Of a stretch of DNA of 38,663 nt, positions 6,866 to 38,663 are shown in pieces. The position numbers and the translations under genes are program-made. This stretch comes from an uncultured Acidimicrobiaceae bacterium (GTDB taxonomy: Bacteria > Actinomycetota > Acidimicrobiia > Acidimicrobiales > CADCSY01): positions 1 to 38,663 of the forward strand of contig CAYGGL010000002.1 in NCBI GenBank assembly GCA_964349215.1, written 5' to 3'. Positions within the stretch are counted from its first letter, which is position 1; each line of letters begins with the position of its first letter. Under the pieces are notes generated by a model that saw nothing but the letters and a program-made list of their open reading frames with translations, ran no database searches and was not told the origin of the DNA.

Positions 6866-7389
6866 CTAACTCAGGTGCTTTGGGCCATCTATGGGCAGGA
6901 TGGCGCAATGAATATGTCAGCTCGGTACTCGATGCGAATGAACCACATGAGCAAGACAAGTGTGTGTTCTGTCGCATCCTGGCTTGTGGAGAGCCCGACG
7001 AATCCACCTTCGTTCTATGGAGAGGTCGTTATTGCGTAGCAATTCTCAACGCCTACCCATACAACAATGGTCATCTGATGGCCATGCCTATCCGCCATGT
7101 TGGTGATCTGGAAAATTTAGAAAAAGATGAGTTGGCCGAGCTCTGGCAAGCGGTCAATGCGGGTGTCGCAGCATTGAAGAGGGCTTACAACCCTGGTGGG
7201 GTGAACTTTGGGGCAAATCTTGGCAGTGCTGCAGGCGCTGGTGTTCCCGATCACTTGCACATTCACTGCTTGCCCCGATGGGCCGGCGACACAAACTTCA
7301 TGACCACGGTTGCAGATACTCGTGTCTTGCCCGAAGCGCTTCCAGTCACTTGGACTCGCCTGCGTGCCGCATGGCCCGTTATTGATTAG
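6862..7389 (+). CDS. HIT-family nucleotide transferase/phosphorylase (Rv2613c-like Ap4A phosphorylase type)
   Basis: NAYPYNNGHLMAMPIRH and the histidine triad HLHIHCLPRW. GTG start overlaps the thrS stop (GTGA). It sits immediately downstream of thrS, as in mycobacteria. Confidence 0.85.
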   Translation: MTNSGALGHLWAGWRNEYVSSVLDANEPHEQDKCVFCRILACGEPDESTFVLWRGRYCVAILNAYPYNNGHLMAMPIRHVGDLENLEKDELAELWQAVNAGVAALKRAYNPGGVNFGANLGSAAGAGVPDHLHIHCLPRWAGDTNFMTTVADTRVLPEALPVTWTRLRAAWPVID

Positions 7390-7453
7390 CAGGCTTGATT
7401 AACTGGCGCGGCCTGATCAGGTGCCTGACCATTGTGACTACTACCCTTGAGCC

Positions 7454-7954
7454 ATGACTGATCGAGACGATGAGGTGCGTGATTCCCTCCCCGCAGATCT
7501 TGACGCCGCTGGATACGTAGGGCCTTACACCTTTCCAGATAATGCTCGTCGAAAGATTCAGGCTTGGCTTTATCTGGTCTTTGGGGTTGTTTGTCTAGGA
7601 CTTTGGCTACTTGTTGACAACGTAATGGTCAATGACGGGTTCTTGTATGTTGCGGTTGTTCTTGTTGCCTTCGGCATCTATTGCATGATCGCCGGAATAG
7701 GCCTTGACATTGACGAGACTGATGCTCTGGTTGCAGCAACAAAGTCAGTGGGATTTCCAATTGGCCACGCTTCGGCCCAGTTGGGATGGAGAGGGTTGAA
7801 GTCACGACCCACTTGGCGCATCCTCGTTTACTCGGCGGAAGATCCACCTAAGAGCAGAGGCCTGGTTCTAATAGATGGCGTGGATGGTTCCGTTGTCGAA
7901 TATTTCGTAGAAGACAATCCTGAAGATCCTGCTGATTGGGCTGAGCTCTCGTAG
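7454..7954 (+). CDS. Hypothetical membrane protein (two adjacent TM helices, acidic termini)
   Basis: 166-aa ORF with hydrophobic helices LYLVFGVVCLGLWLL and LYVAVVLVAFGIYCMIAGI. It fills the gap between the HIT gene and pgsA on the same strand. No recognisable catalytic motif. Confidence 0.6.
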   Translation: MTDRDDEVRDSLPADLDAAGYVGPYTFPDNARRKIQAWLYLVFGVVCLGLWLLVDNVMVNDGFLYVAVVLVAFGIYCMIAGIGLDIDETDALVAATKSVGFPIGHASAQLGWRGLKSRPTWRILVYSAEDPPKSRGLVLIDGVDGSVVEYFVEDNPEDPADWAELS

Positions 7955-8043
7955 GTCAACCCTTTGCGATATTGACCCTTTGCAATATCGACGTTTTTGT
8001 AAAGGTTGTTTTCACATCCCCACTTGCCTGGTACCGTCGTTAC

Positions 8044-8733
8044 ATGCTTGACGGACGTTGGAAGACCGATATTGAGCAACGACTCCAGCCTGTTGGTCAG
8101 GGTCTTCGAAAAATCGGTCTGACCGCAGACCAATTAACCGCTTTTGGTCTTTTGATGTCAGTCGCAGCATCTGTGGCAATTGCGAATGGGGCTTTGCGAG
8201 GGGGGACGTTGCTGTTGTTGGCGACTGCGTTGCCCGATGCTCTCGATGGTGCTGTAGCAAAAGCATCTGGTACCTCGTCACCTCGAGGTGCTTTCTTCGA
8301 TTCGGTATCAGATCGCATAACAGATGTGGTTTTGTTGGGTGGTGTTTCTTGGTTCCTGACCTCTCGCTATGGTGGGCAGGCAGGCATGGTGGCCTTGGCA
8401 ATCATCGGTGCATCGGCTCTTGTTTCATATCAACGGGCAAAGGCCGAAGCTCTCGGATTTGAAGCCAAAGGTGGGCTCATGGAACGAGCCGAGCGATTGA
8501 TCATGTTGGGGTTTGGCTTGTTGTTTGATTCCCTTTTGGTTCCAGTGCTTTGGGTCATGTTGGCATTGACCTTGCTTACGGCAGCTCAGCGTTTTGTAAA
8601 GGTATGGCGTCAGGCCGGCCAGCCGCTTGTCGCTAAAGAAACTCCTGGCCCACTGATTGTTCGTTGGCGAGGACGTCGAGTCGCTCGCCCAACGGCTAGG
8701 GCTCTTCGCCGCCGCGATCGATTGAATCGCTGA
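8044..8733 (+). CDS. pgsA: CDP-alcohol phosphatidyltransferase; phosphatidylinositol(-phosphate) synthase PgsA1-like
   Basis: CDP-OH transferase motif DALDGAVAKASG...GAFFDSVSDRITD and several TM helices. Position matches the mycobacterial thrS-HIT-pgsA1 block. ATG 8044 is preferred over the ORF-track start 7972, whose extra 24 aa look non-coding. Confidence 0.88.
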   Translation: MLDGRWKTDIEQRLQPVGQGLRKIGLTADQLTAFGLLMSVAASVAIANGALRGGTLLLLATALPDALDGAVAKASGTSSPRGAFFDSVSDRITDVVLLGGVSWFLTSRYGGQAGMVALAIIGASALVSYQRAKAEALGFEAKGGLMERAERLIMLGFGLLFDSLLVPVLWVMLALTLLTAAQRFVKVWRQAGQPLVAKETPGPLIVRWRGRRVARPTARALRRRDRLNR

Positions 8734-8755
8734 GCGCCGACAAGCCGACTAAGTC

Positions 8756-9697
8756 TTGAATTCAATAGACAGCCCACCCCCAAAGCGATCTTCCCTGGGG
8801 GCCCTGGCCCCTTATTACGCCTACAGGGTTGGTGCTGCCATCGCACGATTTTTTCCTGAACCTGTAGTGCTGCGTTTAGCTCAAGGTATCGCTGGGCTTG
8901 TATCTGCACGGGCAGGAAAACCAGGATCCAGAAGACAGATGATCGAGCGTCATCTGCAGCGGGCGCATGATCACAAACTCGATGAGGCCAGTTTGAAAAA
9001 GAGCGTGAAGGAGGCTTATGTCTCATATGCGCGCTATTGGGTTGAGTCGTTTCGTTTGCCAGACAAGTCGCCGGCTGATCTTGATGCGACACTTTCATAT
9101 GAGGGATTGGGAAATCTCGAAAGTGCATTGTCCTTAGGCAAAGGGGTGATTCTCTGTCTTCCTCATTTAGGGGGTTGGGACTACGGGGGAGCGTGGCTGG
9201 CAACTCATGGTTATCCGATGAGTGTCGTCGTTGAGCCAGTAGAGCCTCCCGAATTATTTGAGTGGTTCGCTGATCTGCGCAACAACCTCGACCTCAAGGT
9301 TGTACCTCTTGGTCCCAGTTCGGCGATCTCCGTTTTAAAGACCTTGCGTTCTGGAGGAATCGTTGCGCTATTGAGCGATCGCGACCTGACTCGTGACGGG
9401 CCAGAAGTTTCGTTCTTTGGTGAAATGACCACATTGCCTGCAGGGCCCATAACACTTGGTCTTCGTACTGGGGCGCCGGTATTGCCGACCACGATTTACT
9501 TCAAAGCAGATGGTGGCCATCACGGCGTTATTCGTCCCGCCCTTGAGCTTGAGCGTCGCTGCGACTCTCTTAAAGACGACATTAATCGTTGCACCCAAGT
9601 TCTTGCAGACGAACTCGCACTCCTAATACGTGCGGCCCCAGAGCAGTGGCATCTTTTCCAGCCAAACTGGCCATCGGACCCTGGGTACTCCAATTAG
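8756..9697 (+). CDS. patA: Lipid A biosynthesis-type (LPLAT/HtrB family) acyltransferase; PIM acyltransferase PatA-like
   Basis: HX4D acyltransferase motif (CLPHLGGWDYGG). About 310 aa, directly downstream of pgsA as for Rv2611c. TTG start. Confidence 0.8.
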   Translation: MNSIDSPPPKRSSLGALAPYYAYRVGAAIARFFPEPVVLRLAQGIAGLVSARAGKPGSRRQMIERHLQRAHDHKLDEASLKKSVKEAYVSYARYWVESFRLPDKSPADLDATLSYEGLGNLESALSLGKGVILCLPHLGGWDYGGAWLATHGYPMSVVVEPVEPPELFEWFADLRNNLDLKVVPLGPSSAISVLKTLRSGGIVALLSDRDLTRDGPEVSFFGEMTTLPAGPITLGLRTGAPVLPTTIYFKADGGHHGVIRPALELERRCDSLKDDINRCTQVLADELALLIRAAPEQWHLFQPNWPSDPGYSN

Positions 9698-9715
9698 AAG
9701 ACGAGCCCCTTAGGC

Positions 9716-11095
9716 GTGCCTATTTTTAAGTCAACCGAGCCCGTCGGACCAGTCGAGTCGGTAGGAACTTTGCGCTGGCCTGCGCTTGCGCTTCTCGTCG
9801 CTTTGGCTGCGGCGGTAACGGCACAAGGAGCTTTTTATCCATCCGACCAACGCCTTATAGCAATGCCATTGGCAGTCTCTGTTGTTTTAACCGTACTTAA
9901 GTACCGTTCGTTGGTTATCCCTTGGTCATTATTGGCAACTGGTGGGGCCTTGTCGTTATGGGCACTGTTGCTTGGAGACAAGCTCGGCGACGGAGCGGGC
10001 ATTGTCTATATGATCGCAGCCTTCGTGGCGGTGGTGATGGTAGTGGCTTCAACAGCCAGACAAGAGCGCGTTGCTTTGCTTGGCGCAGTGACTGCCCTCG
10101 GGGTATTTGTTTCACTGAGCGGCATAGTTGGCGTTGCATTCCATATCTATGAGCTGGCAATCCCCGGCCAGGGACTCTGGCGAGCATCAACCACTCTCAC
10201 TTATGCGAATGCGTCGGGCAGCCTATTGGGTCCTATTGCTTTGGTGACTCTAGGTCGCAGTACCTCAGAGACGGGACGATCTCGTGTGTTGTGGATGTCT
10301 GCACTTGTAATTCTCTTTGTGGGCCTTGGGGCGACACTAAGTCGCGGGGGAATCCTCGCCTTTGGATGTAGTTTTCTTATTCTACTTTGGCGTTGTCATT
10401 GGAGAGTCATCTTTTCGATCATGGCTCCCGTGGTGCTAGGTACAGCCGTGGCACTTGTTGGCCTAGGCCCATCTTTCTCAGAAGGAAGTGAAGCTCGACC
10501 TGGTTGGGCGATAGCCGGCTTGGTCGTTGGCTTGCTGGTAGCAGTGGTCGTCGGGAGGTGGTCAAACTCACGAATCTTTGCGGCATTGGGAATTTCTGTG
10601 CTGATAGCGGCATTGTCTCTTGCCAATGGCCTCGGTGGCGAAACCCTGAGTCGTTTGAGCGGTACACGTCTGTCGTTTGAGTCCTCCGATAGAACAGAAA
10701 CCTGGAATGCGGCCCTCGAGACGATCCGCAATAGCCCATGGACGGGAGAAGGCCCTGGCAATGGACGCCTTCGCTACTACCAAGAGAGCGGCAACTATGT
10801 CGAGGCCCGCTTCGTGCACAACGAATATCTTCAGATCGGGGTCGAACTAGGCATCGTGGGAATGTTGTTATTGGCCGCAATCTTCATGACGGTCATCGGT
10901 GGCGTGATGTTCGGTGGTGCGAAAGTCAGTGGAGCTAACAGTTCAGATGTTTGGTATGGAGTTTTAGCCGCGCTTTTGGCACTGGCTATTGGGTCCGGAC
11001 TCGACTTTCTATGGCATATTCCTGCTATCCCGTTAGTTGGTGCGGTATTAATTGGTGCGAGTTGGCAGGAGAAATCCAGGAGGATAAAGAACTGA
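9716..11095 (+). CDS. Polytopic membrane protein with an O-antigen ligase/polymerase (Wzy_C-type) domain
   Basis: 459 aa with 10 or more hydrophobic helices by eye. TLSRGGILAFG and RFVHNEYLQIGVELGIVGMLLL resemble the Wzy_C/WaaL signature region. GTG start. Confidence 0.7.
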   Translation: MPIFKSTEPVGPVESVGTLRWPALALLVALAAAVTAQGAFYPSDQRLIAMPLAVSVVLTVLKYRSLVIPWSLLATGGALSLWALLLGDKLGDGAGIVYMIAAFVAVVMVVASTARQERVALLGAVTALGVFVSLSGIVGVAFHIYELAIPGQGLWRASTTLTYANASGSLLGPIALVTLGRSTSETGRSRVLWMSALVILFVGLGATLSRGGILAFGCSFLILLWRCHWRVIFSIMAPVVLGTAVALVGLGPSFSEGSEARPGWAIAGLVVGLLVAVVVGRWSNSRIFAALGISVLIAALSLANGLGGETLSRLSGTRLSFESSDRTETWNAALETIRNSPWTGEGPGNGRLRYYQESGNYVEARFVHNEYLQIGVELGIVGMLLLAAIFMTVIGGVMFGGAKVSGANSSDVWYGVLAALLALAIGSGLDFLWHIPAIPLVGAVLIGASWQEKSRRIKN

Positions 11096-11186
11096 TACTC
11101 TGAGGGCATTATATGGCGCTGTTTTTCCGCGGCTGGGGTGATCAATTCACTTTGGTTTGAGCGCGATTCTGTCTAAGGAGATTTTT

Positions 11187-11765
11187 ATGACGGGCAATAC
11201 GATCAAGATGAGCGATTCGAGTATGAGGCGTTGGGTCCGTCCAGCTGCCGCAATAGCCGGTGGGGCACTCTTCGCCACTCTCGCAGCAGGGTCTCCTTTG
11301 CTTGCCGGGCATTCGCCTGTGGCTTGCCAATCACCGATTGCCGGGCATTCACCGGTGTCAGACCATTCGCCCGTGGCTTGCCAATCGCCAGTATCAGAGC
11401 AGTCACCGGTTTCTGGGGTATCTCCAGTGAAGCCCAAGATCACGGTTGAGATTGATACTCCAGTTATCAGGTCTGCCAATGGGAAAGTTGTTTATGTTCC
11501 TGTACTCGTTGTTTGTACTGCTGGACCCAATGCCCAGCTAAGTGCTGAGCTGACCCAGAAACTCGCTTTGGTCACCCGCACGGGCAAGGGTACGGCGTCA
11601 GCTCCTTGCGATAACAAGCAACACGTAATTCGTCTTGCAGTTAACGCAACTAGCACGGCCTTTGCTTTAGGCAAGGCATCAGTGAAGGTAACAGGGATCC
11701 AGAACCACCCAAATGGTGTGGCAACTGGCCAAGACACAGAGCAAGTACAGATCCGCTTGCGCTAA
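11187..11765 (+). CDS. Secreted hypothetical protein with an N-terminal SPV-rich tandem repeat linker and a beta-rich C-terminal domain
   Basis: ATG 11187 has AAGGAG 7 nt upstream. Signal-peptide-like RRWVRPAAAIAGGALFATLAAG is followed by repeats GHSPVACQSPIAGHSPVSDHSPVACQSPVSEQSPVSGVSPV. The C-terminal ~100 aa contains two Cys. Confidence 0.7.
   Translation: MTGNTIKMSDSSMRRWVRPAAAIAGGALFATLAAGSPLLAGHSPVACQSPIAGHSPVSDHSPVACQSPVSEQSPVSGVSPVKPKITVEIDTPVIRSANGKVVYVPVLVVCTAGPNAQLSAELTQKLALVTRTGKGTASAPCDNKQHVIRLAVNATSTAFALGKASVKVTGIQNHPNGVATGQDTEQVQIRLR
11304..11429 (+). repeat. In-frame coding tandem repeat, including a 27-nt segment repeated at 54-nt spacing
   Basis: cattcgcctgtggcttgccaatcaccg (11310-11336) versus cattcgcccgtggcttgccaatcgcca (11364-11390), flanked by shorter xSPVxx-coding units. 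Confidence 0.85.
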
Positions 11766-11820
11766 GAGACCTCTGACCTTCTCGTTGGTTTGGGCAAAGC
11801 GCCCGTTCTACGCTGGGTCA

Positions 11821-12090
11821 ATGTGTAGGAACATCACTGAGCTTCGTGGACTTGAGCCTCCGGCAACCAGTCAAGAGATTGAGGCGGCAGCTCGTCAGTA
11901 TCTTCGCAAGATATCTGGCATTGCTCGTCCCAATGAAAAAGTAAGTGAGGCTATGGAGACGGCTGTACATGAAGTCGCCCAAATCACTCAACGGCTTTTG
12001 AGTGATTTGCCGCCTCGTCGTCAGCCTCCCTCAACGCTCCCGCCGTTACGTCGTGATGAGGTTCGTCGTCGCCTGGGGATAGACCAATGA
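11821..12090 (+). CDS. Small conserved protein, DUF2277-like
   Basis: 89 aa starting MCRNITELRGLEPPATSQEIEAAARQYLRKISG, which matches my recollection of the DUF2277 N-terminus. The ORF-track start 11713 overlaps the upstream gene and is rejected. Confidence 0.6.
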   Translation: MCRNITELRGLEPPATSQEIEAAARQYLRKISGIARPNEKVSEAMETAVHEVAQITQRLLSDLPPRRQPPSTLPPLRRDEVRRRLGIDQ

Positions 12091-12122
12091 GGGCTTGGCA
12101 GGGGTAATTCCCCTACGCTCGC

Positions 12123-13193
12123 GTGGTGCACATTGGCCTGATCTGTCCATATAGCCTTACGTTCCCCGGTGGGGTGCAAGGCCAGGTTCTTGGGCTGGCC
12201 CGTGCGCTGCGATTACTTGGAAACGATGTTACGGTACTTGGACCAACAGATGGGCCTCCACCAGATGTGGGAGTTGTGTCGCTTGGTAAGTCGGTTCCGT
12301 TTGCCACCAATGGTTCCATTGCTCCAATAGCGCCAGATCTGCCATGCGCGATTAGGACCATTAAGACACTGCGCAATGAATCATTTGATGTGGTTCATCT
12401 TCACGAACCCTTTGTTCCGGGGCCATGTCTTACGTCGATTTTGATGAAACCAAGTCCTCTCGTTGGCACCTTTCACGCTGCGGGAGCAAAGACTGCATAC
12501 AGCTGGGCAGCTCCAGGACTTCGCAGGCTCGCAAGTCGTCTTGATCTGCGTTGTGCGGTTTCTGATGACGCTCGTGATTTGGCAGAGCAATATCTGGACG
12601 GGACCTATGAGACGGTTTTCAATGGCATCGAGATTGAGCGATTTTCTACTGCAAAACCATGGCCAACTGAAGGACCAACAATTTTGTTTGTGGCCCGTCA
12701 TGAAGAGCGAAAAGGTTTAGCAGTTCTATTAGAGGCAATGGCATCTCTTGGCCCTGATGTTCGCCTCTGGGTGGCAGGCGAGGGGCCAGAGACGCTTCGC
12801 CTGCACACTCAGTATCAAAGTGATGAGCGCATCGAGTGGCTGGGCCGCATAGGCGACAGAGAGCTGACCCAACGCCTGGCAGGAGCAAATGCTTTTTGTG
12901 CCCCATCGCTTCATGGTGAGTCATTTGGGGTCGTTTTACTTGAGGCAATGGCCGCGGGAACTGCGATTGTGGCGAGCGATCTTTCTGGCTACAGACGAGT
13001 TGCTCGAAGCGGCCAAGAGGCTCAACTGGTGGCCCCTGGAGATGCACAAGCGTTGGCATCAGCACTTCGTGAGGTGCTCGAACACCCCGAGCTTGGCGCT
13101 TCGTTGGTGGCGAACGGCAGACAACGAGTCGAAGAATTTTCCATGAACAAGCTGGCTGCTCGTTATCTCGATTTGTATGAATCGATCCTATGA
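12123..13193 (+). CDS. pimA: GT4 glycosyltransferase; phosphatidylinositol alpha-mannosyltransferase PimA-like
   Basis: GT-B/GT4 signature ESFGVVLLEAMAAGTAIVASD (EX7E), N-terminal ICPYS...GGVQ, and membership of the PI/PIM gene block. GTG start. Confidence 0.85.
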   Translation: MVHIGLICPYSLTFPGGVQGQVLGLARALRLLGNDVTVLGPTDGPPPDVGVVSLGKSVPFATNGSIAPIAPDLPCAIRTIKTLRNESFDVVHLHEPFVPGPCLTSILMKPSPLVGTFHAAGAKTAYSWAAPGLRRLASRLDLRCAVSDDARDLAEQYLDGTYETVFNGIEIERFSTAKPWPTEGPTILFVARHEERKGLAVLLEAMASLGPDVRLWVAGEGPETLRLHTQYQSDERIEWLGRIGDRELTQRLAGANAFCAPSLHGESFGVVLLEAMAAGTAIVASDLSGYRRVARSGQEAQLVAPGDAQALASALREVLEHPELGASLVANGRQRVEEFSMNKLAARYLDLYESIL

Positions 13194-14766: not shown

Positions 14767-15867
14767 ATGAAATCTTGCATGTCCCGTTTCACCATTAAGC
14801 CGCTGCTCGTCATAGGCGCTATCGCAATGGTTTTAACCGCCTGCGGTGGTGGCAACGATAAGCCTCCCCCGTCGACGGTTAAGAAGACAACCACTACAAC
14901 AGCTCCACCAGTAGCGCCATTAACCGGAATCATCCGTGATGATGACAGCCTTAATAATCATCCGGCTTTAGTGGTCAAGATCGACAACACGCCTAAGGCT
15001 TTGGGCAAACAAGCGGGCATCAATGCTGCCGACATTGTCTATGTCGAACAGGTCGAGGGCGGCGCCACTCGCATGGCCGCAGTATTTCATTCCACCGATG
15101 CCGATGCCGTCGGCCCAGTTCGATCAGCTCGTACCTCTGATTACGACATCATAAAGAATCTCAATCGACCTCTCTTTGCCTATTCAGGAGCCAACTCAGG
15201 CGTTGATGCCGGTATCAATGCCAGTCCATTGGTCAATGTCGGCGTTACGAAGAAACAAAACGCCTATTCCAAGAGAGGAAGCGGCGTCTTGCGTTTCTTT
15301 GCTTCGACCAAAGATCTTTATGAAGGCGAAACAGGAACTGCACCGGGGCCACTGTTTACATTCCGCCCAGAAGGCACACCAGTTAGCTCAACAACTGCAG
15401 AGGCAAGTGCCGGTGTCAATATCTCCTATGGCGGATCTTCAAACACTTCAGTTAATTGGACACCTGATGGTGATCGTTGGCTCAGAACTCAAAGTGGCAA
15501 AGCTCATGTTGATGACGGCGGTAATAGAGTCAATCCCAACAATGTGATCGTCCAGTTTGTTGAGTACCGCTCATCTGGATATGTCGACGTAAGCGGTAGC
15601 CCATCTCCCGAAGCAGTGCTTGTGGGAACTGGCGAGGTTTGGGTTTTCTCCGATGGCAAATTGGTTCGTGGCACTTGGACCCGTCCAAACCCTGAGTCGA
15701 TTACCACATTGACCGATGCGGCCGGAAAGCCTATTACTTTGGCTCCCGGGCGCACGTGGATAGAGCTTGCGCCTATTGGATCAGCGGCTGCGATATCAGC
15801 CCCGACGACAACATCTTCGACTCCGGCTACTCCAAGTACCCGAGTAACAACAACGAAGAAACCTTGA
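14767..15867 (+). CDS. DUF3048-family lipoprotein (YerB-like)
   Basis: Lipobox VLTACGG. ALVVKIDNTPKA...GINAADIVYVEQVEGGATRMAAVFHS resembles the DUF3048 signature. Thr/Ser/Pro-rich linkers at both ends. Confidence 0.75.
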   Translation: MKSCMSRFTIKPLLVIGAIAMVLTACGGGNDKPPPSTVKKTTTTTAPPVAPLTGIIRDDDSLNNHPALVVKIDNTPKALGKQAGINAADIVYVEQVEGGATRMAAVFHSTDADAVGPVRSARTSDYDIIKNLNRPLFAYSGANSGVDAGINASPLVNVGVTKKQNAYSKRGSGVLRFFASTKDLYEGETGTAPGPLFTFRPEGTPVSSTTAEASAGVNISYGGSSNTSVNWTPDGDRWLRTQSGKAHVDDGGNRVNPNNVIVQFVEYRSSGYVDVSGSPSPEAVLVGTGEVWVFSDGKLVRGTWTRPNPESITTLTDAAGKPITLAPGRTWIELAPIGSAAAISAPTTTSSTPATPSTRVTTTKKP

Positions 15868-28295: not shown

Positions 28296-29405
28296 TTAGG
28301 CACTCATCGTTTCGCCTTCGGCGAGAGCAAACATTTCGTACTCTTCGCCTGTATCGGCCCAATCTTCAAACTGGATCACGCCTAGTTCTTCGAACTTGTG
28401 ACGCAACCAAGCGTCACCTGCATCAAGAAGACCAAGCTTCTTGCAGTTGGGGACAATCTTAGAAAAGAGCATCTTTTGGAATTCGGCACGGTAAGGAGAC
28501 TGCTGGGTGATGGCCATGGCAGCCTTGGGGTCTACTCCCATGCGATCCCAAACCTCTTGTTGCAAGAAACGGTCACGCATACGTACGGCGGCCTCGTAGG
28601 CAAACTCTTGGCGAATGCGCAGCTCAGGGGCGCTCATATTTTCATAGACCTCTTGGAGGCTGAGAACTCCGAAGGCAACGTGGCGAGCTTCGTCACTCAT
28701 GACGTAGCGCAAAAGTTGCTTGAGTAGTGGCTCGGTGGTCATCTGATGCATGAAACCGAACGCAGCAAGAGCTAGGCCTTCGACCATGATCTGCATTCCA
28801 AGATAAGTAATGTCCCAACGCTCATCTTTGATGATGTCGTCGAGCAACATCCCAAGGTGAGCATTGACCGGGTATGAGTTCCCAATCTTGTCAAGGTACT
28901 TGGCAAACACCTCAACGTGGCGAGCTTCGTCCATAGCCTGTGTGGCTGCGTAGTACTTGGCATCGATCCAAGGCACATTCTCAATGATGCGAGCGGTACA
29001 GATAAGAGCACCTTGCTCACCATGCATGAATTGGCTGAGTGCCCAAGCCTGGCTTTCAATGCCCATCTGAAGGAATTCCTTATCGCCCCACTTCTCAAAG
29101 GGGGTACCGGCAAGTTCCATCTGCTGGAGTCCAAAAGACTGCATCTGGAGTGCAGCGAGAGCCTCTTGATCAATCTCGGTTTCCCAAGGTAGATCAGTCT
29201 CACCGTTCCACATGGAGTGCTTTGCTTTCTCATACAGACGGTTCAGCTTGGGGCGTTGGCCTTTGTCGTAGTCCCAAGTGAAGATCGTGTCGTAGTTGCT
29301 GCGTACTTCGTGTACGACTGCATCGACGTCCTTATTGCTGATGGCAAGAATGGCGTCAAGATCATTGACTTCATCTCTACCGATCAGTTCTTTGTTGGTT
29401 GCCAT
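28296..29405 (-). CDS. Ferritin-like diiron-carboxylate protein (R2/AurF-like oxygenase superfamily), function unknown
   Basis: Two E...EXXH half-sites: HGEQGAL...MDEARHVEVF and MVEGLALAAF...SDEARHVAFG. 369 aa with a ~100-aa N-terminal extension. Confidence 0.7.
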   Translation of the reverse strand: MATNKELIGRDEVNDLDAILAISNKDVDAVVHEVRSNYDTIFTWDYDKGQRPKLNRLYEKAKHSMWNGETDLPWETEIDQEALAALQMQSFGLQQMELAGTPFEKWGDKEFLQMGIESQAWALSQFMHGEQGALICTARIIENVPWIDAKYYAATQAMDEARHVEVFAKYLDKIGNSYPVNAHLGMLLDDIIKDERWDITYLGMQIMVEGLALAAFGFMHQMTTEPLLKQLLRYVMSDEARHVAFGVLSLQEVYENMSAPELRIRQEFAYEAAVRMRDRFLQQEVWDRMGVDPKAAMAITQQSPYRAEFQKMLFSKIVPNCKKLGLLDAGDAWLRHKFEELGVIQFEDWADTGEEYEMFALAEGETMSA

Positions 29406-29432
29406 TATTTCTCCCCTATATGGATGTGGTTG

Positions 29433-30101
29433 CTATTTGGGTCTTAGGACTGATGAGGCCCTTGGTATTGAAATCCGTGTATTGAAATCTTGTGCCGGCT
29501 CCCGGGCCAACATGGCGATTCCGGGCATTATGAAGGTTTCGATTAGGCGCTTCACTGAGTCTTCGTCGTATGGGTCAAAGCGCTCTGATGGTGAAGATGC
29601 ATAGGACAATACGATGCGAACGATCCGCTCTGCTGCCTCTAAGGCTTGAGCACGATCAAACCAAGGAGCTAGTTGTGCTGCGGTGAAGATCGTGCCGGGG
29701 CGAACAAGGCCATCCATCGAAGGAGCCAGAATGTGGATAGCTGGGGCATCGGGTTCATATGTCAGCAAGGCCCTAAGTGCAGGATGGCCTATCAAGCGTC
29801 GAAGGGCATGGCCAACGCCAAGGATAAGACGATCTTCGAGTGTGTCTGCTTCTTTAAGTTCGTCACTGAGGGCCGCGAAAAAAGTAGTTGCCTCTGCATC
29901 GGCAACTGCTTGTACCAGGCTTTCTTTTCCTCCTGGGAAAAGGCGGTAAACCGTTGCCCTACTGCAACCGGCCTCACGAGCGACATCTTCAAGGCTGGTT
30001 TTGTTTATTCCCCATCGTTCAATGCAAGTAAGGCAAGCGATCCTAATACGTGTCTCGACCTCTGAGGTCTGAGACGAAACAGCCACTGCCGGAGATGCCA
30101 T
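29433..30101 (-). CDS. TetR/AcrR family transcriptional regulator
   Basis: N-terminal HTH TSLEDVAREAGCSRATVYRLFPGGKESL. 222 aa, lying 27 nt upstream of the diiron gene on the same strand. Confidence 0.9.
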   Translation of the reverse strand: MASPAVAVSSQTSEVETRIRIACLTCIERWGINKTSLEDVAREAGCSRATVYRLFPGGKESLVQAVADAEATTFFAALSDELKEADTLEDRLILGVGHALRRLIGHPALRALLTYEPDAPAIHILAPSMDGLVRPGTIFTAAQLAPWFDRAQALEAAERIVRIVLSYASSPSERFDPYDEDSVKRLIETFIMPGIAMLAREPAQDFNTRISIPRASSVLRPK

Positions 30102-34064: not shown

Positions 34065-34922
34065 CTAGGATTTATCCACCTGTCCGAGTTCATCCAGTGC
34101 TCTAAGAGGGCCAAATCGATTGATGATATCGCTGAACGAGATGCGTTCTGCTGCGAGATTTAAACCTAAAACAACTAATAGGGCGATCACGCGAACCCAC
34201 GGTGGGCAAGCAATGACCAGGGAAAATCCCATCACTCCTCCCAATACGTTTGCACCCGCATCTCCCAACATGAACCGTTCCTTCAAGTCTCCCGAGATCA
34301 AGATGAGACTGACGGCAAACACAATGGCTGGGCCGACCAGAAATGATCTATATGTCGCAACGGCACCAATCAGTACAAATGCAATCGTTGAAAATTTGAG
34401 TACCCGCCCAGGGGCGCGGTCAAAGAGGTTGGCAAGATTTGTAGTCAACCCAACCAGTGCGCCGTCCCGCATTACATGTAGGGGTGCGAGGGTGCCAGGT
34501 TCAACAAAGGGAGCGCAGACCACGATTGCTATGCACCCGCCCCCGATTAGTTTGAGCCCGCCGGTTGTCATTTGTCCGTGAATCAATGAGTTGAGATGTC
34601 CACGAAAACCTCTTATGTCACTTGTCCCCACAAGGTCATCGATGACGCCTAAAAACCCGAGGACAACGGCTAGCGCGAGCGTCGTGAGTCGATAGCTGTC
34701 CATGCGAATTTCGAGGTCAGCACTTAACGAGGCGACAAGGGCGAAGACGGCCTCTGTGATCAACAAAGCGATTGGGATCACCAAGCCAACTGATGTTGGC
34801 AACGCCTTTCCTCGGTAGTTCTCTCGGGTGAAAATTTCCCGAGCGAAGACTGGGCGCAACATCTTCAGCGCTATCGCTCCGCTGATGAGCCCTCCCATAA
34901 TTGCCAGAGGAATGACGTCCAT
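34065..34922 (-). CDS. Polyprenyl-phosphate sugar-1-phosphate transferase family protein (MraY/WecA, GT4 PF00953-like), short form
   Basis: Polytopic. Motifs NYRGKALPTSVG, VIDDLVG (DD), TNLANLFDRAPG and LGDAGANVLG (MGDxGS-like). The ATG directly abuts the stop of the upstream gene. Confidence 0.7.
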   Translation of the reverse strand: MDVIPLAIMGGLISGAIALKMLRPVFAREIFTRENYRGKALPTSVGLVIPIALLITEAVFALVASLSADLEIRMDSYRLTTLALAVVLGFLGVIDDLVGTSDIRGFRGHLNSLIHGQMTTGGLKLIGGGCIAIVVCAPFVEPGTLAPLHVMRDGALVGLTTNLANLFDRAPGRVLKFSTIAFVLIGAVATYRSFLVGPAIVFAVSLILISGDLKERFMLGDAGANVLGGVMGFSLVIACPPWVRVIALLVVLGLNLAAERISFSDIINRFGPLRALDELGQVDKS

Positions 34923-37835
34923 TTAGTTCTTCACCAGCAGGGTTGGTTCACTGCGGTCCTGTAAAGCCAAAAGTGTGAAGTAAGGACCCAGAAATACAAA
35001 TACCAATGCAGTAACAACTACGCCTGAGTCATTTACTGCAAATCCCAACAGGCCAACTGCAATTGTGCTGAGCACTCCGACTCTTTTTGCCGAGCCCCTC
35101 GGCAAAAGCTCTGACCCCTCGTTGAGATATGCCAGAACATACACAATAAATATGGTGGTGATAGGGACCATCCATGCCCAAAAAGTTGTTCCCAATACGC
35201 GTAAGTTGGTTGCCAATTTGCGTGCGATCGTGGTGCCGGCGGTGTCATTTCCTCCAAATAAATCAGCGGCAAAGCGACCTAAGTGAGTACGCGACTCTGG
35301 GTCTCTGAGTAGGTCGAGCCCCGTCGCTATACCTAAAAATGCAAAGAGTAAGGCCCCCACCATCAACAGGTGACGCACATTTAATCTCCTACCACTCAAG
35401 GAAATGAGTGTCAGTCCATATACGGGAACCAGAGTCAAGATGCCCCCGACATCGTTACCCAGTTTTGGTGCGCCATCCGATATGACCACGATCGCCAATA
35501 GAGCAGCGGCACTCAGGAGTGCTTCTTTACGACGCGGTGCATGTTCGACATGTAGACATGCTGCGATGGCAGCACATGCACCCAGAGTTGCAAATGCAGT
35601 GTTTCCAATTCCGAAGAAACGAGCAGCAGTATGAAGTGAGTAGCCCAACAAACTCGAATACTGCAATCGAGCCCCGGTCGCTAGATCAATAACTATTAGC
35701 GCAGTAGTGATTCCAGTGATCCAAGCCAGGGGACTGAGAGCATGACGATTGGCTCGTAGCGCCAATGCAGTGATGGCAACATTGATCATTATCAGTACCG
35801 CCAACGCTCCATCGCCAAGGCGTGCCACTTCGGGAACTGCTCGAAAGAGGAATGTGGCTAACGGAAAGCCGGCAACAGTTACTACAGCCATGCGCAACAG
35901 GCGTCTTAACCCATCAGCTTTTTGGAGCCGCGACAGGGTCGTGATGGCAAATAGATAGAGCAATGCCTGGATTACGACAAAAGTGATCGTAATTTTTAGA
36001 TAAATGCCTTCACGAAAACCTGCATCACGATCAAGGTTTTGGATATAGCCCATATCTGGCTTATCTGGTCTATATCGCAGTGCATGGCCGATCATTCCGG
36101 TTGGCACTTCGGCCGATACGGCCTCAAGAATGCTTGGAGCAATGTCGGTTACCGTCACGACTCCAAGACGTTTTACAGAAGGAGACTGAGCGTATCCGTG
36201 CTCGATGCCGGGGCCCGTAGTTATGAATGGGGTCAGATGCCAGCCTTGACTCGCGGGCGAAACCGACATGACAAAGATCAGCGAATCCTTAGGAGCGAGG
36301 CTAAGTACGTCACCAAGTAGTTCATCGGTTCGTTCAATTGCCTGCGTTCGATCAGCGCTAGCTGCCTTATCAAGTGACATCGCTGCATACGCCGTGGCTC
36401 GGTCAATGTCGCCTGGGTCGATAGCAATCACGTCAGCAGTTTGAAGCGCAACTTTGAAAGAGTCGATGACTTCGTCTTTGTCGAAGCGCACGCCAAAGGG
36501 CGCTTGAGGGTCGGGTTTCAACAAACCTGCGTCAACACGACCAGTATCTACACTTGCTCTTCTATCAACCAACGAGATTCCGATTGGACGATTGACTTTT
36601 TTATCAATATCGCCTGTGCCCAAGTCGCCATTTCCAATCACGGCAGAGGTGACACCAGCGACGTTTAATGCGTCGCCCAGTGCTCCCGGCTCGCTGCTTA
36701 GATGCTTACCTGTTGATTGGCGCACTGTGGTTGGATAACCAATTACTACGACTTGTCCATCAGTTGAGCGACCGGTTCTGCGTTGGGCGACTTCTATCGC
36801 AGTGCCGCCTTCAACCAATTCATCGGCCTGGTATGCAGATGCACCGGCAATGGCATCAGCACGCACACGGGTGCCCGCATTGAGCGACGCGTATCCCTCA
36901 GTAGTAGAGGGTCTTCCAGACATGGTTCGTACGCTCATGGCCGCAACCGCACCTCGGTTGAGAAGCCCATCGATATTTGGTGTGTTTCCTTGTTGCAGAT
37001 CTTCAAAACTCAAACGCGGCACTCCAAAGATGATCACCTTCGAAGGCTTGGTTGAAAGTGCATTGCTAGAGGGTTCCCATCTGCCACCTGACCACAACAT
37101 CCACACCATAAATACAACAGAGGTAATGGCAATGATGGCCATTCTCAAACGTTGGCTGGTTAGGCGAACCCAAAGTGCTCGCAAGATGTCGAGTCCTTGG
37201 CGGCCACGATGACGAAAGCCTGCAAATTTCCGCCCGGTGTGGCGATGATCCATGTTGACATCGAGCTCAACAACCCTGGCACCACTACGTACGGCATCAA
37301 TGGTCAGGGCTGTTTCCAGTCCGAAGCGCGGCGCTAATTCAATAGAGCGAAGTAGCTCACCACGTATTGCTCGTTGACCAGATAAGGGAGCCTTTGCCAC
37401 AAATCCACAGCCACGTTTGATACCCGCAGCCGAAAGATTTCTGACCATTCCAAAGCCGCCCTTTGACCCGGCAGAAGGCAACACCCCAACGGTCATATCC
37501 GCTGTGTTTTCAAGGACTGGCCCAAGCAATGCCTCTGCGGCGCCGCCAGATTGGCCAACGTCGGCATCAATCATCAGATAGACGCTTGCATGAGGGGCAG
37601 CTTTAATACCTGCCATTACAGCGCCGGCCTTACCCAGGTTGCGGGGAAGCTTTAATACATCAGCACCTGCTTCAACGGCGCGCTCCGACGTTGCATCGCT
37701 TGAGCCGTCGTCAATGACGAGCACGCGCTCTACTTCGTTGATTGAGCGAGCCGCCCTCACCGTTTCGGTGATCGAATCGGCCGAATCTTTCGCCGGAATC
37801 AAAACGACAACACCAGTCGCTGCCAAATTTGTCAA
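34923..37835 (-). CDS. Multidomain membrane protein: N-terminal GT-A (family 2/81-like) glycosyltransferase, one TM helix, alkaline-phosphatase-superfamily-like ectodomain, and a C-terminal ~10-TM domain
   Basis: GT-A: VVVLIPAKDSADSI, VIDDGSSD, LMIDADV (DXD) and RFGLETALTID. Ectodomain: NTPNIDGLLNRGA, GRPSTTEGYASLNAG and VTVTDIAPSILEAV..VPTGMIGHAL. TTG 37835 has AGGAGG 7 nt upstream and overlaps the murJ stop. The ORF-track start 38024 lies inside murJ. Confidence 0.75.
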   Translation of the reverse strand: MTNLAATGVVVLIPAKDSADSITETVRAARSINEVERVLVIDDGSSDATSERAVEAGADVLKLPRNLGKAGAVMAGIKAAPHASVYLMIDADVGQSGGAAEALLGPVLENTADMTVGVLPSAGSKGGFGMVRNLSAAGIKRGCGFVAKAPLSGQRAIRGELLRSIELAPRFGLETALTIDAVRSGARVVELDVNMDHRHTGRKFAGFRHRGRQGLDILRALWVRLTSQRLRMAIIAITSVVFMVWMLWSGGRWEPSSNALSTKPSKVIIFGVPRLSFEDLQQGNTPNIDGLLNRGAVAAMSVRTMSGRPSTTEGYASLNAGTRVRADAIAGASAYQADELVEGGTAIEVAQRRTGRSTDGQVVVIGYPTTVRQSTGKHLSSEPGALGDALNVAGVTSAVIGNGDLGTGDIDKKVNRPIGISLVDRRASVDTGRVDAGLLKPDPQAPFGVRFDKDEVIDSFKVALQTADVIAIDPGDIDRATAYAAMSLDKAASADRTQAIERTDELLGDVLSLAPKDSLIFVMSVSPASQGWHLTPFITTGPGIEHGYAQSPSVKRLGVVTVTDIAPSILEAVSAEVPTGMIGHALRYRPDKPDMGYIQNLDRDAGFREGIYLKITITFVVIQALLYLFAITTLSRLQKADGLRRLLRMAVVTVAGFPLATFLFRAVPEVARLGDGALAVLIMINVAITALALRANRHALSPLAWITGITTALIVIDLATGARLQYSSLLGYSLHTAARFFGIGNTAFATLGACAAIAACLHVEHAPRRKEALLSAAALLAIVVISDGAPKLGNDVGGILTLVPVYGLTLISLSGRRLNVRHLLMVGALLFAFLGIATGLDLLRDPESRTHLGRFAADLFGGNDTAGTTIARKLATNLRVLGTTFWAWMVPITTIFIVYVLAYLNEGSELLPRGSAKRVGVLSTIAVGLLGFAVNDSGVVVTALVFVFLGPYFTLLALQDRSEPTLLVKN

Positions 37836-38663
37836 ACGGTTGCCTCCTGGGGCTTTTGCCTGCGCACCTCGGGAGAACCAAGAGCGAATTGAATGCCAGC
37901 GTAGATCGCCACTCCGACAAAACCTGCCATTGCAACTGTGAATGCTGCACCAAAGCGACCTTCGAGCGAAATAGTTTCCGCCAGGTACCAGACGGCCAAT
38001 CCTGCTACTGCCGATGATCCACATGCACGGACAATTGGGAGGGCAACGTCAAGAGAATGGGGAAGTTTTTTGGCAATGACCATCATGAGCACGATTGCTC
38101 CTGCGAGTTGGACAACAGAGTGTGCGACGCCGAGTGATGCAACCTGATTAATGCCATCTGTGGAGCTCGACCACCACAACATAAGAGCCGAACCAATAAT
38201 TGCCATGGCCATATTTATCAACGTTGGACTACGTGTGTCTTCTGCTGCATAGGACGCTCTGGTGAGAAGCTGAAAGACCGAGTAGCCAAAAAGTCCAAAG
38301 GCATAACCTGCCAATGTCCTAGAAACAAGTTCGGATTGCGCGGAAAGTTCTCCGAGTGAAACCGCATTGAGGATTGGATTGGAAAGCACAGCGAGAAATA
38401 TCGAAGTGGGGAGAATAAAAAAACTGAGTTGGCGAATTCCGCTGCCAAGGTGTTGCCCAAATGCCGTCTGGTCGTTGCGATGAATGTCGCCAGACAGCTG
38501 AGGGAAAAGTGTTGTGAGAATTGGGTTTCCTACTAAAGCATATGGGAACAAAAAAAACGTAAAAGCTATTTGGTAGGCGACAACCCCGCCTTCAATTCGA
38601 TTGGCAAGGACTAATGTAACTCCCAGAAGCACCTGCGTAAGGCCTAGATAACTGGCCGCCCAG
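37832..38663 (-). CDS. murJ: Lipid II/MOP-family flippase MurJ (MviN), C-terminal part; 5' end lies outside the window
   Basis: The frame is open to the window edge (WAASYLGLTQ precedes the ORF-track start). ANRIEGGVVAYQIAFTFFLFPYALVGNPILTTLFPQLS is the MurJ signature region, followed by several further TM helices. It ends without a pseudokinase extension. Confidence 0.88.
   Translation of the reverse strand, partial: WAASYLGLTQVLLGVTLVLANRIEGGVVAYQIAFTFFLFPYALVGNPILTTLFPQLSGDIHRNDQTAFGQHLGSGIRQLSFFILPTSIFLAVLSNPILNAVSLGELSAQSELVSRTLAGYAFGLFGYSVFQLLTRASYAAEDTRSPTLINMAMAIIGSALMLWWSSSTDGINQVASLGVAHSVVQLAGAIVLMMVIAKKLPHSLDVALPIVRACGSSAVAGLAVWYLAETISLEGRFGAAFTVAMAGFVGVAIYAGIQFALGSPEVRRQKPQEATV

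Follow-up and report, generated by a model that had tools for sequence, protein, structure and literature searches.

GT2-type glycosyltransferases such as AglJ, GpgS, PpgS, ArnC, DPMS, GtrB and MpgS act on phosphate-bearing acceptors, and in three-component systems (GtrA/GtrB/Gtr, CsbB-YfhO, ArnC-ArnT and PpgS-Rv3779), as well as in Ppm1 (Rv2051c), a GT2 enzyme loads a carrier that an enzyme on the outside consumes. LtaS, EptA/MCR-1, OpgB and GacH act on lipid-derived phospho-groups at the external face of the membrane. YejM/PbgA (LapC), a Gram-negative membrane protein whose external domain resembles alkaline phosphatase (AlkP) and lacks a normal catalytic site, has five N-terminal transmembrane (TM) helices and no fused glycosyltransferase, and is thought to bind lipid and to regulate envelope synthesis. 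Little is understood of the envelope glycopolymers of Actinomycetota other than mycobacteria, and some of the expected enzymes (LtaS-type synthases, for example) are without clear orthologues in Actinomycetota (PMC3196553). Here we analysed a 38,663-nucleotide stretch of contig CAYGGL010000002.1 (assembly GCA_964349215.1; the whole stretch is referred to as the window) from an uncultured Acidimicrobiales bacterium, in which one gene encodes a glycosyltransferase fused to a predicted AlkP-like external domain and an 11-helix membrane domain. We tentatively propose, with somewhat less than even confidence, that the fusion unites two parts of a lipid-linked envelope glycan pathway conserved in Actinomycetota; the chemistry of this pathway we infer from sequence comparisons.

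One gene and three domains

The stop-to-stop open reading frame (ORF) on the minus strand occupies 34923..38024, with the first 63 codons lying over the 3' end of the upstream murJ. The start that makes biological sense is a TTG at 37835; it overlaps the murJ stop codon (TGA, in TTGA) and gives a product of 970 aa. The same 970-aa protein (P0001) was called by gene callers on other assemblies at 100% identity and coverage, and identical copies were found on contigs from four different sequencing runs. Hundreds of full-length homologues are present in Acidimicrobiales: the 120 best of the 482 recovered by homologue search were 957-1037 aa long, with 50-74% identity over at least 95% of the query, and those with names came from Acidimicrobiales metagenome bins and were labelled only 'glycosyltransferase' or 'hypothetical protein'. 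The full-length AlphaFold model was also confident (predicted local distance difference test, pLDDT, 89.4; predicted TM-score, pTM, 0.86). These observations confirm that the ORF is one real, single gene. A sequence-only reading of this DNA had left room for two genes separated by an unnoticed frameshift; this is not the case, since the best homologues are full length, and the identical protein in four runs likewise rules it out. All of the motifs quoted in that reading were located in the protein (Table 1).

A GT-A domain at the N terminus, as the sequence-only reading proposed, was well supported. Pfam PF00535 (Glycos_transf_2), the sole Pfam match on the fusion protein, covered residues 11-130 with 56.4 bits against a cut-off of 23.3 (E 4.5e-15), and a family profile searched against PDB sequences retrieved GpgS (8e-15) as well as MpgS, DPMS and ArnC. 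Foldseek searches with the full model returned GpgS, ArnC, DPMS and GtrB at E 1e-10 to 1e-7 (GpgS at E 2.7e-10, target TM-score 0.65) as well as MpgS, and only GT-A structures occurred among the 50 matches listed. The best NCBIfam matches (AglJ, GpgS, PpgS and ArnC) were all below threshold, with scores under the equivalog cut-offs for AglJ (71.6 vs 325), PpgS (45.9 vs 370) and ArnC (21.7 vs 529), and also for the GpgS equivalog NF010496 (54 bits vs 262), which represents a soluble enzyme, whereas the domain here is tethered to a membrane protein. Among homologues of the fusion protein, DDGSxD (42-47), NxGK (66-69) and PLSGQR (150-155) are invariant (alignment columns D42-D43, N66, G68-K69 and P150-L151-S152-G153-Q154-R155), and D90 and D92 of the DxD motif (nt 37560-37568) are invariant in 50 homologues. 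Invariance extends to a His/Arg-rich stretch (H197, G201-R202, H209-R210 and Q213) that aligned with the C-terminal part of GpgS. Residues 1-203 are therefore a bona fide GT-A domain, a member of no curated equivalog, and judging from its sequence relatives the domain belongs near enzymes with phosphate-bearing acceptors (GpgS, MpgS, ArnC, DPMS and GtrB).

Between the GT-A domain and the external domain, an amphipathic helix carrying the invariant H209, R210 and Q213 is followed by a single TM helix with a hydropathy peak at 230-248. Stand-alone GT2 orthologues (229-285 aa) end after the amphipathic helix, without a TM helix, and stand-alone versions of the remainder (external domain plus helix bundle, hereafter the module) start with a TM helix that is the counterpart of residues 228-250, implying that the fusion joins the C terminus of a GT2 to the N-terminal anchor of a module. 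The GT-A domain is placed in the cytoplasm because it requires nucleotide sugars, and with one TM helix following it, residues 251-594 would lie outside; the 11 further helices are predicted to return the C terminus to the inside, giving an N-in/C-in module. Natural fusions of the types module-GT2-module and MurJ-module-GT2-module (see below) are topologically possible only if the module is N-in/C-in. Hydropathy and the AlphaFold helices thus bear out the previously suggested order of one TM helix, an external domain and then a polytopic domain, here with 11 TM helices.

No Pfam or NCBIfam model matched the external domain of the window protein itself. In a PDB sequence search with a profile built from 73 distant stand-alone relatives, however, the 26 best matches all fell in the AlkP superfamily, including iPGM (best, E 1.1e-4), sulfatases and phosphonate monoester hydrolase, with NPP-type phosphodiesterases matched on the N-terminal strand-helix part (E 9.4e-3). 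Weak Pfam matches among 60 family members were to SGSH_C (25), Sulfatase (9), Phosphodiest (4, best 1.9e-5) and Metalloenzyme (2), all of which are families of the AlkP clan, and some relatives carry the UniRef names 'alkaline phosphatase family protein' or 'phosphoglyceromutase'. The domain was modelled with a pLDDT mostly above 90 in the full-length structure. These matches are weak but consistent, and they support an AlkP-superfamily-like external domain, as had been suspected from its motifs.

The further suspicion that this domain is catalytically divergent was also substantiated. At residue 273, where the first metal-binding Asp would be expected, Pro is present in 48 of 50 close and 64 of 73 distant homologues (Asp in 4 of the 73), and the iPGM segment ADHG, which holds the Asp-His ligands, aligns to V-S/G-P-x-P in the family. 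There is no conserved His in the external domain. Most members have Ser or Thr somewhere at 309-311, where the nucleophile would be expected, and no position there is invariant (residue 310 is S in 27, T in 17 and D in 11 of the 73 sequences). Instead, the fused subfamily holds R303, E313, R323, D404, D473, R479, D504, W532 and D564 invariant and Y315 and D476 nearly so, and the conserved positions of the domain comprise R303, Y315, R323, N402/D404, an acid at 473, D476, R479, D504, S551 and D564.

The external domain varies far more across the family than the helix bundle, which is the most conserved part of the whole family. Its eleven hydrophobic helices span about residues 613-958, according to hydropathy and AlphaFold, and its motifs (D717; RFxGxGN with R739 and N745; GxDVGG with D795; D841..RP..TH851LGR; R872-K873; and N935-D936-S937-G938) are retained even where overall identity falls to 25%. 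All of the polar residues of the bundle that are invariant family-wide fall in predicted outward loops, based on helix parity and the positive-inside pattern, and the conserved outward Arg, Lys and His would suit the binding of a (pyro)phosphate head group. The loop at 720-745 had a pLDDT of about 81-85 in the full model compared with 33-45 in a TM-only model of the bundle; that it is ordered only with the external domain present suggests, at the level of the models, that it packs against the AlkP-like domain.

Similarity searches with the bundle gave no relatives. Foldseek of the TM-only model (pLDDT 77.7) against PDB yielded nothing at E <=0.001 (best E 0.46), with a highest TM-score of 0.28 (WaaL) and AftA at E 1.9 and TM-score 0.19, although Foldseek is not very sensitive for helical bundles and a remote GT-C relationship could escape it. 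Comparisons by hhalign were negative against a GT87-like GT-C alignment (probability 0.2%), the Wzy_C protein from the window, MurJ and the MraY-like (PNPT-like) family. No Pfam or NCBIfam relatives of the bundle were found in 60 members, barring scattered single noise matches, and a stray GT87 match occurred in 1 of the 60. We also looked for an internal repeat, a transporter signature, and none was detected in the bundle. The earlier suggestion that the C-terminal domain is GT-C-like thus gained nothing from Foldseek or from the GT87-like comparison and was set aside.

Natural fusions and gene neighbourhood

The module architecture is not rare and belongs to a very large family, most members of which are stand-alone. 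At E <=0.001, an HMMER scan with residues 246-970 recovered 3,833 representative clusters (50% identity level), of which 1,267 also passed E <=1e-30. Neither Pfam (2025 copy) nor NCBIfam (2026) nor the PDB has an entry that covers the module, and sources call it hypothetical. Among the 150 best family representatives, 109 were the module alone (about 750 aa), 29 were GT2-module, six module-GT2-module and two module-module; module-GT2, GT2-module-PNPT-like, MurJ-module-GT2-module and MurJ-GT2-module occurred once each. Giant fusions of the MurJ-module-GT2-module, module-GT2-module, GT2-module-PNPT-like and MurJ-GT2-module types comprised P0129 (2394 aa), P0121 (1790 aa), P0126 (1243 aa) and P0232 (1114 aa). 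The 2,394-aa MurJ-containing four-part protein was identical in independent JGI and Logan assemblies and is therefore not a one-off error; P0121 also recurs in independent assemblies.

Fusion of GT2 to the module was seen in the window and at five further loci (L001-L005), and at 17 others, spanning Coriobacteriia, Micrococcales, Streptosporangiales and Kineosporiales, a GT2 gene and a stand-alone module are no more than about 3.5 kb apart. For Micrococcales, Streptosporangiales and Kineosporiales, this neighbouring pair maps to another part of the genome, mostly in convergent orientation. A single module locus (L006) is without a nearby GT2, and its bin has GT2 and PNPT-like genes on another contig (L011). 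That GT2 and module are separate neighbours elsewhere in Actinomycetota and fused in several orders lends indirect support to the logic of a donor synthase joined to its consumer, which the sequence-only reading had invoked. Between GT2 and module at seven loci (L013 8855-10339, L015 9982-11517, L018 9733-11454, L024, L026, L028 and L032; Streptosporangiales and Intrasporangiaceae) is a gene encoding a GT-C membrane protein (GT87-like, about 450-500 aa); it immediately follows the stand-alone GT2, in the slot that the MraY-like gene occupies in basal lineages. GT-C enzymes use polyprenyl-phosphate-linked sugars as donors.

Within the window, murJ is followed on the minus strand by the fusion gene and then by a gene for a 285-aa polytopic protein, with an overlap at the first junction and no gap at the second, and the same gene coupling was observed in L002 and L009. 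The sequence-only reading noticed neither this murJ operon nor the truncated MraY/WecA-like gene at its end. In sister contigs (L085-L088) murJ encodes 511 aa and is divergent from pyrG; its 266-aa part in the window matched Pfam MurJ (1.3e-26) and TIGR01695 (1.4e-26). Against the TIGR01695 cut-off of 235.55, the window's 266 aa scored 93 bits and the L009 orthologue 286, whereas the L002 orthologue, at 201, was below the cut-off.

The 285-aa protein has invariant D95-D96, N162xxN165xxD168 and MLGD221xGxN225 in 12 orthologues, and hhalign of its family against Escherichia coli MraY put these three motifs in register (probability 41%, E 2.8e-4). PF00953 matched weakly in 6 of the 12 orthologues (best 3.6e-5); the window protein itself had no Pfam match at E <=0.01, the family profile no relevant match among PDB sequences, and NCBIfam gave marginal MraY matches only. 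JGI names many of its homologues MraY/WecA-type transferases, and a few of them carry a precomputed PF00953 match. The protein ends about 40 residues after GDxG, with no conserved His there, and so departs from the full-length PNPT architecture of 10-11 TM helices with a C-terminal His-rich loop. The link to MraY is drawn from the motifs, the hhalign result and the source annotations, and on this sequence evidence we regard the protein as a truncated, divergent MraY/WecA-like protein and not as a proven member of the superfamily. Its gene adjoins GT2 at 11 distinct loci.

Elsewhere, the gene order nadK-recN-steA-steB(mctB)-(murJ)-GT2(± module)-PNPT-like-pyrG was seen in other Acidimicrobiales, in Coriobacteriia, in unclassified Actinomycetota bins and in a few Bacillota-labelled bins. 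SteA and SteB act as a septal complex to control RipA/RipC, a cell-separation hydrolase (PMC6705760, PMC12977500), and steAB has been reported in a subset of Clostridia (PMC12977500), which fits the Bacillota-labelled loci. Both SteAB papers are silent on these neighbour genes, and the literature on the module family was not searched. In other Acidimicrobiales, steA-steB precede the system and pyrG comes after the PNPT-like gene in the same orientation, whereas in the organism of the window pyrG-NUDIX-ald-xerD are divergent from murJ (L085 1-10004 compared with window 37832-38663); a local inversion appears to have separated the window operon from recN-steAB. Three loci (L010, from Acidimicrobiales MED-G01, L012 and L016) keep steA-steB-GT2-PNPT-like-pyrG without a module at the locus.

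Table 1. Location of the fusion gene, its domains and motifs, and the adjoining genes.
Feature	Nucleotides in window	Strand	Residues	Basis or remark
murJ, 3' part (MOP-family lipid II flippase)	37832..38663	minus		Runs off window end; Pfam, TIGR01695
Fusion gene	34923..37835	minus		970 aa, TTG start at 37835
Cytoplasmic GT-A (GT2) catalytic domain	37227..37835	minus	1-203	Pfam, PDB, Foldseek
Amphipathic juxtamembrane helix and single TM helix	37086..37226	minus	204-225, 228-250	AlphaFold helices
Extracytoplasmic AlkP-superfamily-like alpha/beta domain	36054..37085	minus	251-594	Profile and weak Pfam matches
C-terminal 11-helix membrane domain	34923..36053	minus	595-970	Includes stop codon; hydropathy, AlphaFold
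285-aa polytopic PNPT-like (COG0472) protein	34065..34922	minus		Starts at base after fusion stop
VIDDGSSD			39-46	
IDAD			89-92	DxD motif
RFGLETALTID			170-180	
IIAITSVVFMVWMLW			234-248	TM helix
FGVPRLS			270-276	
NTPNIDGL			284-291	
PSTTEGYASLNAG			309-321	
TDIAPSILEAV			563-573	
GHAL			583-586	

Other regions of the window were also annotated. A conserved actinobacterial phosphatidylinositol/phosphatidylinositol mannoside locus (4919-13193, plus strand) comprises thrS and genes for a HIT protein, a CDP-alcohol phosphatidyltransferase, an HtrB-like acyltransferase and a PimA-like GT4; between the acyltransferase and GT4 genes are an O-antigen-ligase-like Wzy_C gene (9716-11095) and a gene for a 202-aa protein (11157-11765) with a weak, sub-threshold Cementoin match. 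A gene for a DUF3048 protein (14767-15867, plus strand) follows LemA and M48 peptidase genes upstream of pdxS-pdxT-yebC-ruvCAB, a housekeeping context. At 28296-30101 (minus strand), an AurF-like di-iron N-oxygenase gene lies beside a TetR regulator, as recognised via the identical sister contig L085. The genes on either side encode several alpha/beta-hydrolases and a short-chain dehydrogenase, and the group may be a small catabolic or secondary-metabolite cluster.

A possible lipid-linked glycan pathway and its alternatives

With the GT-A domain inside and the conserved site of the module outside, an intermediate has to cross the membrane and would hence be lipid-linked. Because the GT-A domain is tied to a module with an outward site, and is repeatedly fused to or encoded beside MurJ-family, MraY-like and, in some lineages, GT-C proteins, a lipid-linked glycan pathway based on polyprenyl phosphate is the simplest explanation. 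What the analysis shows directly is the domain make-up, topology logic, conservation pattern, operon structure, synteny and gene fusions. In the first step we envisage, the GT-A domain would move a sugar from a nucleotide sugar to a phosphate-bearing lipid carrier at the cytoplasmic face. This carrier could be polyprenyl phosphate, as for DPMS, GtrB, ArnC and PpgS, or a polyprenyl-diphosphate-sugar made by the co-transcribed MraY/WecA-like enzyme, and in either case the intermediate would be polyprenyl-linked. The lipid-linked product would then be flipped to the outer leaflet, most likely by the co-transcribed MurJ-family protein. At the outer face, the module (an AlkP-fold domain devoid of its metal site on an 11-helix bundle, with invariant Arg, Asp, His and Asn facing outward) would bind the phospho-lipid-linked sugar and, if it is catalytic and not simply a binding or scaffold protein, pass the sugar to an envelope acceptor, or polymerise or ligate it.

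Two versions of this pathway can be drawn. In the first, the GT-A domain would make a polyprenyl-phosphate-sugar donor in the manner of DPMS, GtrB and ArnC, which fits its nearest relatives and the GT-C neighbours. In the second, the MraY-like protein would prime a polyprenyl-diphosphate-sugar, the GT-A domain would extend it, MurJ would flip it and the module would ligate or polymerise the product; such a lipid II-like line fits the MurJ and PNPT-like fusions. Taken furthest, the module would represent an extracytoplasmic enzyme of a new class, its membrane fold absent from solved structures, and with the GT-A domain, the MraY-like protein and MurJ would form a second lipid II-like assembly line, ancestral to Actinomycetota, for an envelope glycopolymer or lipoglycan, possibly working at the division site next to SteAB. 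We consider this full scenario doubtful.

Several observations weigh against a lipid-linked pathway. The bundle is without detectable similarity to any known transferase, polymerase or ligase, such that catalysis by it is a guess from conservation, and the external domain is without the AlkP catalytic apparatus. The GT-A domain scores far under every NCBIfam equivalog cut-off and lacks the DADLQxxP-type motif of DPMS, GtrB and ArnC; given that its stand-alone orthologues have no TM helices, they could use a soluble phospho-acceptor, by analogy with GpgS. A murJ gene is found at the locus in some lineages only (it is absent from L001, L004, L005, L010, L012 and L016), and MurJ may simply be the housekeeping lipid II flippase. 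In addition, L010, L012 and L016 have GT2 and PNPT-like genes with no module nearby.

The absence of canonical metal ligands and of a conserved nucleophile across the family, together with an external domain much more variable than the helix bundle, could also be read as a dead AlkP fold serving as a non-catalytic sensor or scaffold similar to YejM/PbgA. Such a protein would bind a lipid or lipid-linked precursor outside and control or localise the attached GT-A domain, and might also influence MurJ and the MraY-like protein encoded next to it, perhaps coordinated with cell division: most basal Actinomycetota loci lie directly after steA-steB (mctB), between recN and pyrG, and SteAB regulates RipA (PMC6705760, PMC12977500). 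However, the invariant Asp, Arg, His and Asn residues crowded into the bundle's outward loops look more like an active site, tandem module duplications (module-module and module-GT2-module) are more typical of paralogous enzymes, and the pair is not beside steAB in Micrococcales and Streptosporangiales. On balance, we judge a pure sensor or scaffold unlikely.

The GT87-like GT-C gene between GT2 and module at seven loci would put a consumer of polyprenyl-phosphate-sugar already in place, and MurJ is missing from many loci, which raises the question of whether the bundle is itself a flippase, or a carrier-lipid recycler, for the GT-A product. The outside transferase would then be a separate protein such as the GT87-like GT-C, the external domain would merely dock a partner or acceptor, and a donor synthase fused to its flippase would make sense. 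Known flippases of polyprenyl-phosphate-monosaccharides, however, are small proteins with four TM helices. Moreover, no internal repeat or transporter-like fold was detected in the bundle, its conserved polar residues lie in external loops and not along a membrane-spanning path, and Acidimicrobiales loci are without an adjoining GT-C gene, and so we regard this explanation as quite unlikely.

Very unlikely, in our assessment, is a non-canonical phosphotransferase of the LtaS/EptA/GacH type, which would move glycerol-phosphate, sugar-1-phosphate or a similar phospho-group from a lipid donor to an envelope polymer. The external domain does share a superfamily with LtaS, EptA and the sulfatases, the module is membrane-embedded and faces outward, and the conserved acids D404, D/E473, D476, D504 and D564 might form an unusual metal site. 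Such an enzyme could also account for the missing LtaS-type step in Actinobacteria, as those that make lipoteichoic acid have no clear LtaS orthologues (PMC3196553). Against this stand the conserved Pro at the first metal-binding Asp position, the replacement of the iPGM Asp-His pair by Ser/Gly-Pro, the lack of an invariant Ser/Thr at the nucleophile position and a domain order reverse to that of LtaS and EptA. Finally, a merger of two or three genes through sequencing or assembly error, which overlapping or abutting operon genes would in principle allow by a one-base change, is effectively ruled out by the identical protein on contigs from four separate runs, the at least 120 full-length homologues (50-74% identity, at least 95% coverage) and the confident full-length model (pLDDT 89.4, pTM 0.86).

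Whichever role the module has, a family of thousands of clusters is tied by fusion and gene order to a sugar transferase, MurJ and a MraY-like enzyme, and in basal lineages it sits within the conserved, division-related recN-steAB-pyrG region. Were the module an enzyme, cell-wall or lipoglycan assembly would gain a new outward-facing step and the module would represent a new membrane fold; were it a pseudo-enzyme, Gram-positive bacteria would have their own equivalent of the YejM-type envelope sensor. Either way, the single-polypeptide fusion and the cultured carriers (e.g., Cellulomonas fimi, which has the module Celf_3607 and a convergent GT2 gene) offer a handle for finding the substrate.

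Comparison with known systems

The GT-A domain resembles DPMS, GtrB, ArnC, PpgS, AglJ, GpgS and MpgS in its fold and in its DxD and NxGK motifs, and shares with polyprenyl-phosphate GT2 enzymes, GpgS and MpgS an amphipathic helix by the membrane after the catalytic core. It differs from the polyprenyl-phosphate enzymes in its sub-cut-off scores, in stand-alone orthologues without TM helices of their own, and in being fused to, or encoded beside, an orphan module instead of a GtrA-type flippase. The module in turn shares with LtaS, EptA/MCR-1, OpgB and GacH an outward AlkP-fold domain on a polytopic membrane domain. Unlike LtaS- and EptA-type proteins, it has no metal ligands, its nucleophile position is not conserved and its bundle is dissimilar. 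Its domain order is atypical as well, as the sequence-only reading recognised: LtaS and EptA have the TM bundle first and the AlkP domain last, whereas here a single TM helix precedes the AlkP-like domain and 11 TM helices follow it. No sequence relationship with YejM/PbgA was detected, and the strongest conservation of the module is in the bundle.

With the three-component systems and Ppm1, the window system has in common the logic of loading a carrier inside for consumption outside, and the fusion or adjacency of synthase and partner. The partner here, however, is not a recognisable GT-C and has an AlkP-like domain, and the operon adds MurJ and a MraY-like protein, which are typical of diphosphate-linked rather than monophosphate-linked pathways. 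The GT-A domain and the 'load inside, use outside' logic are thus already known, while the outside component and the four-part gene association are not known to have been described. Compared with the lipid II pathway (MraY, MurG, MurJ and SEDS/PBP), the PNPT-like protein falls short of MraY by about 75 residues and has no conserved His after GDxG, the transferase is GT-A where MurG is GT-B, and the module is unrelated to SEDS, Wzy and WaaL by the Foldseek and hhalign tests run. The same roles are nevertheless brought together here in one operon, with a PNPT-like primer, a glycosyltransferase, a MurJ-family flippase and a polytopic protein with an outward site.

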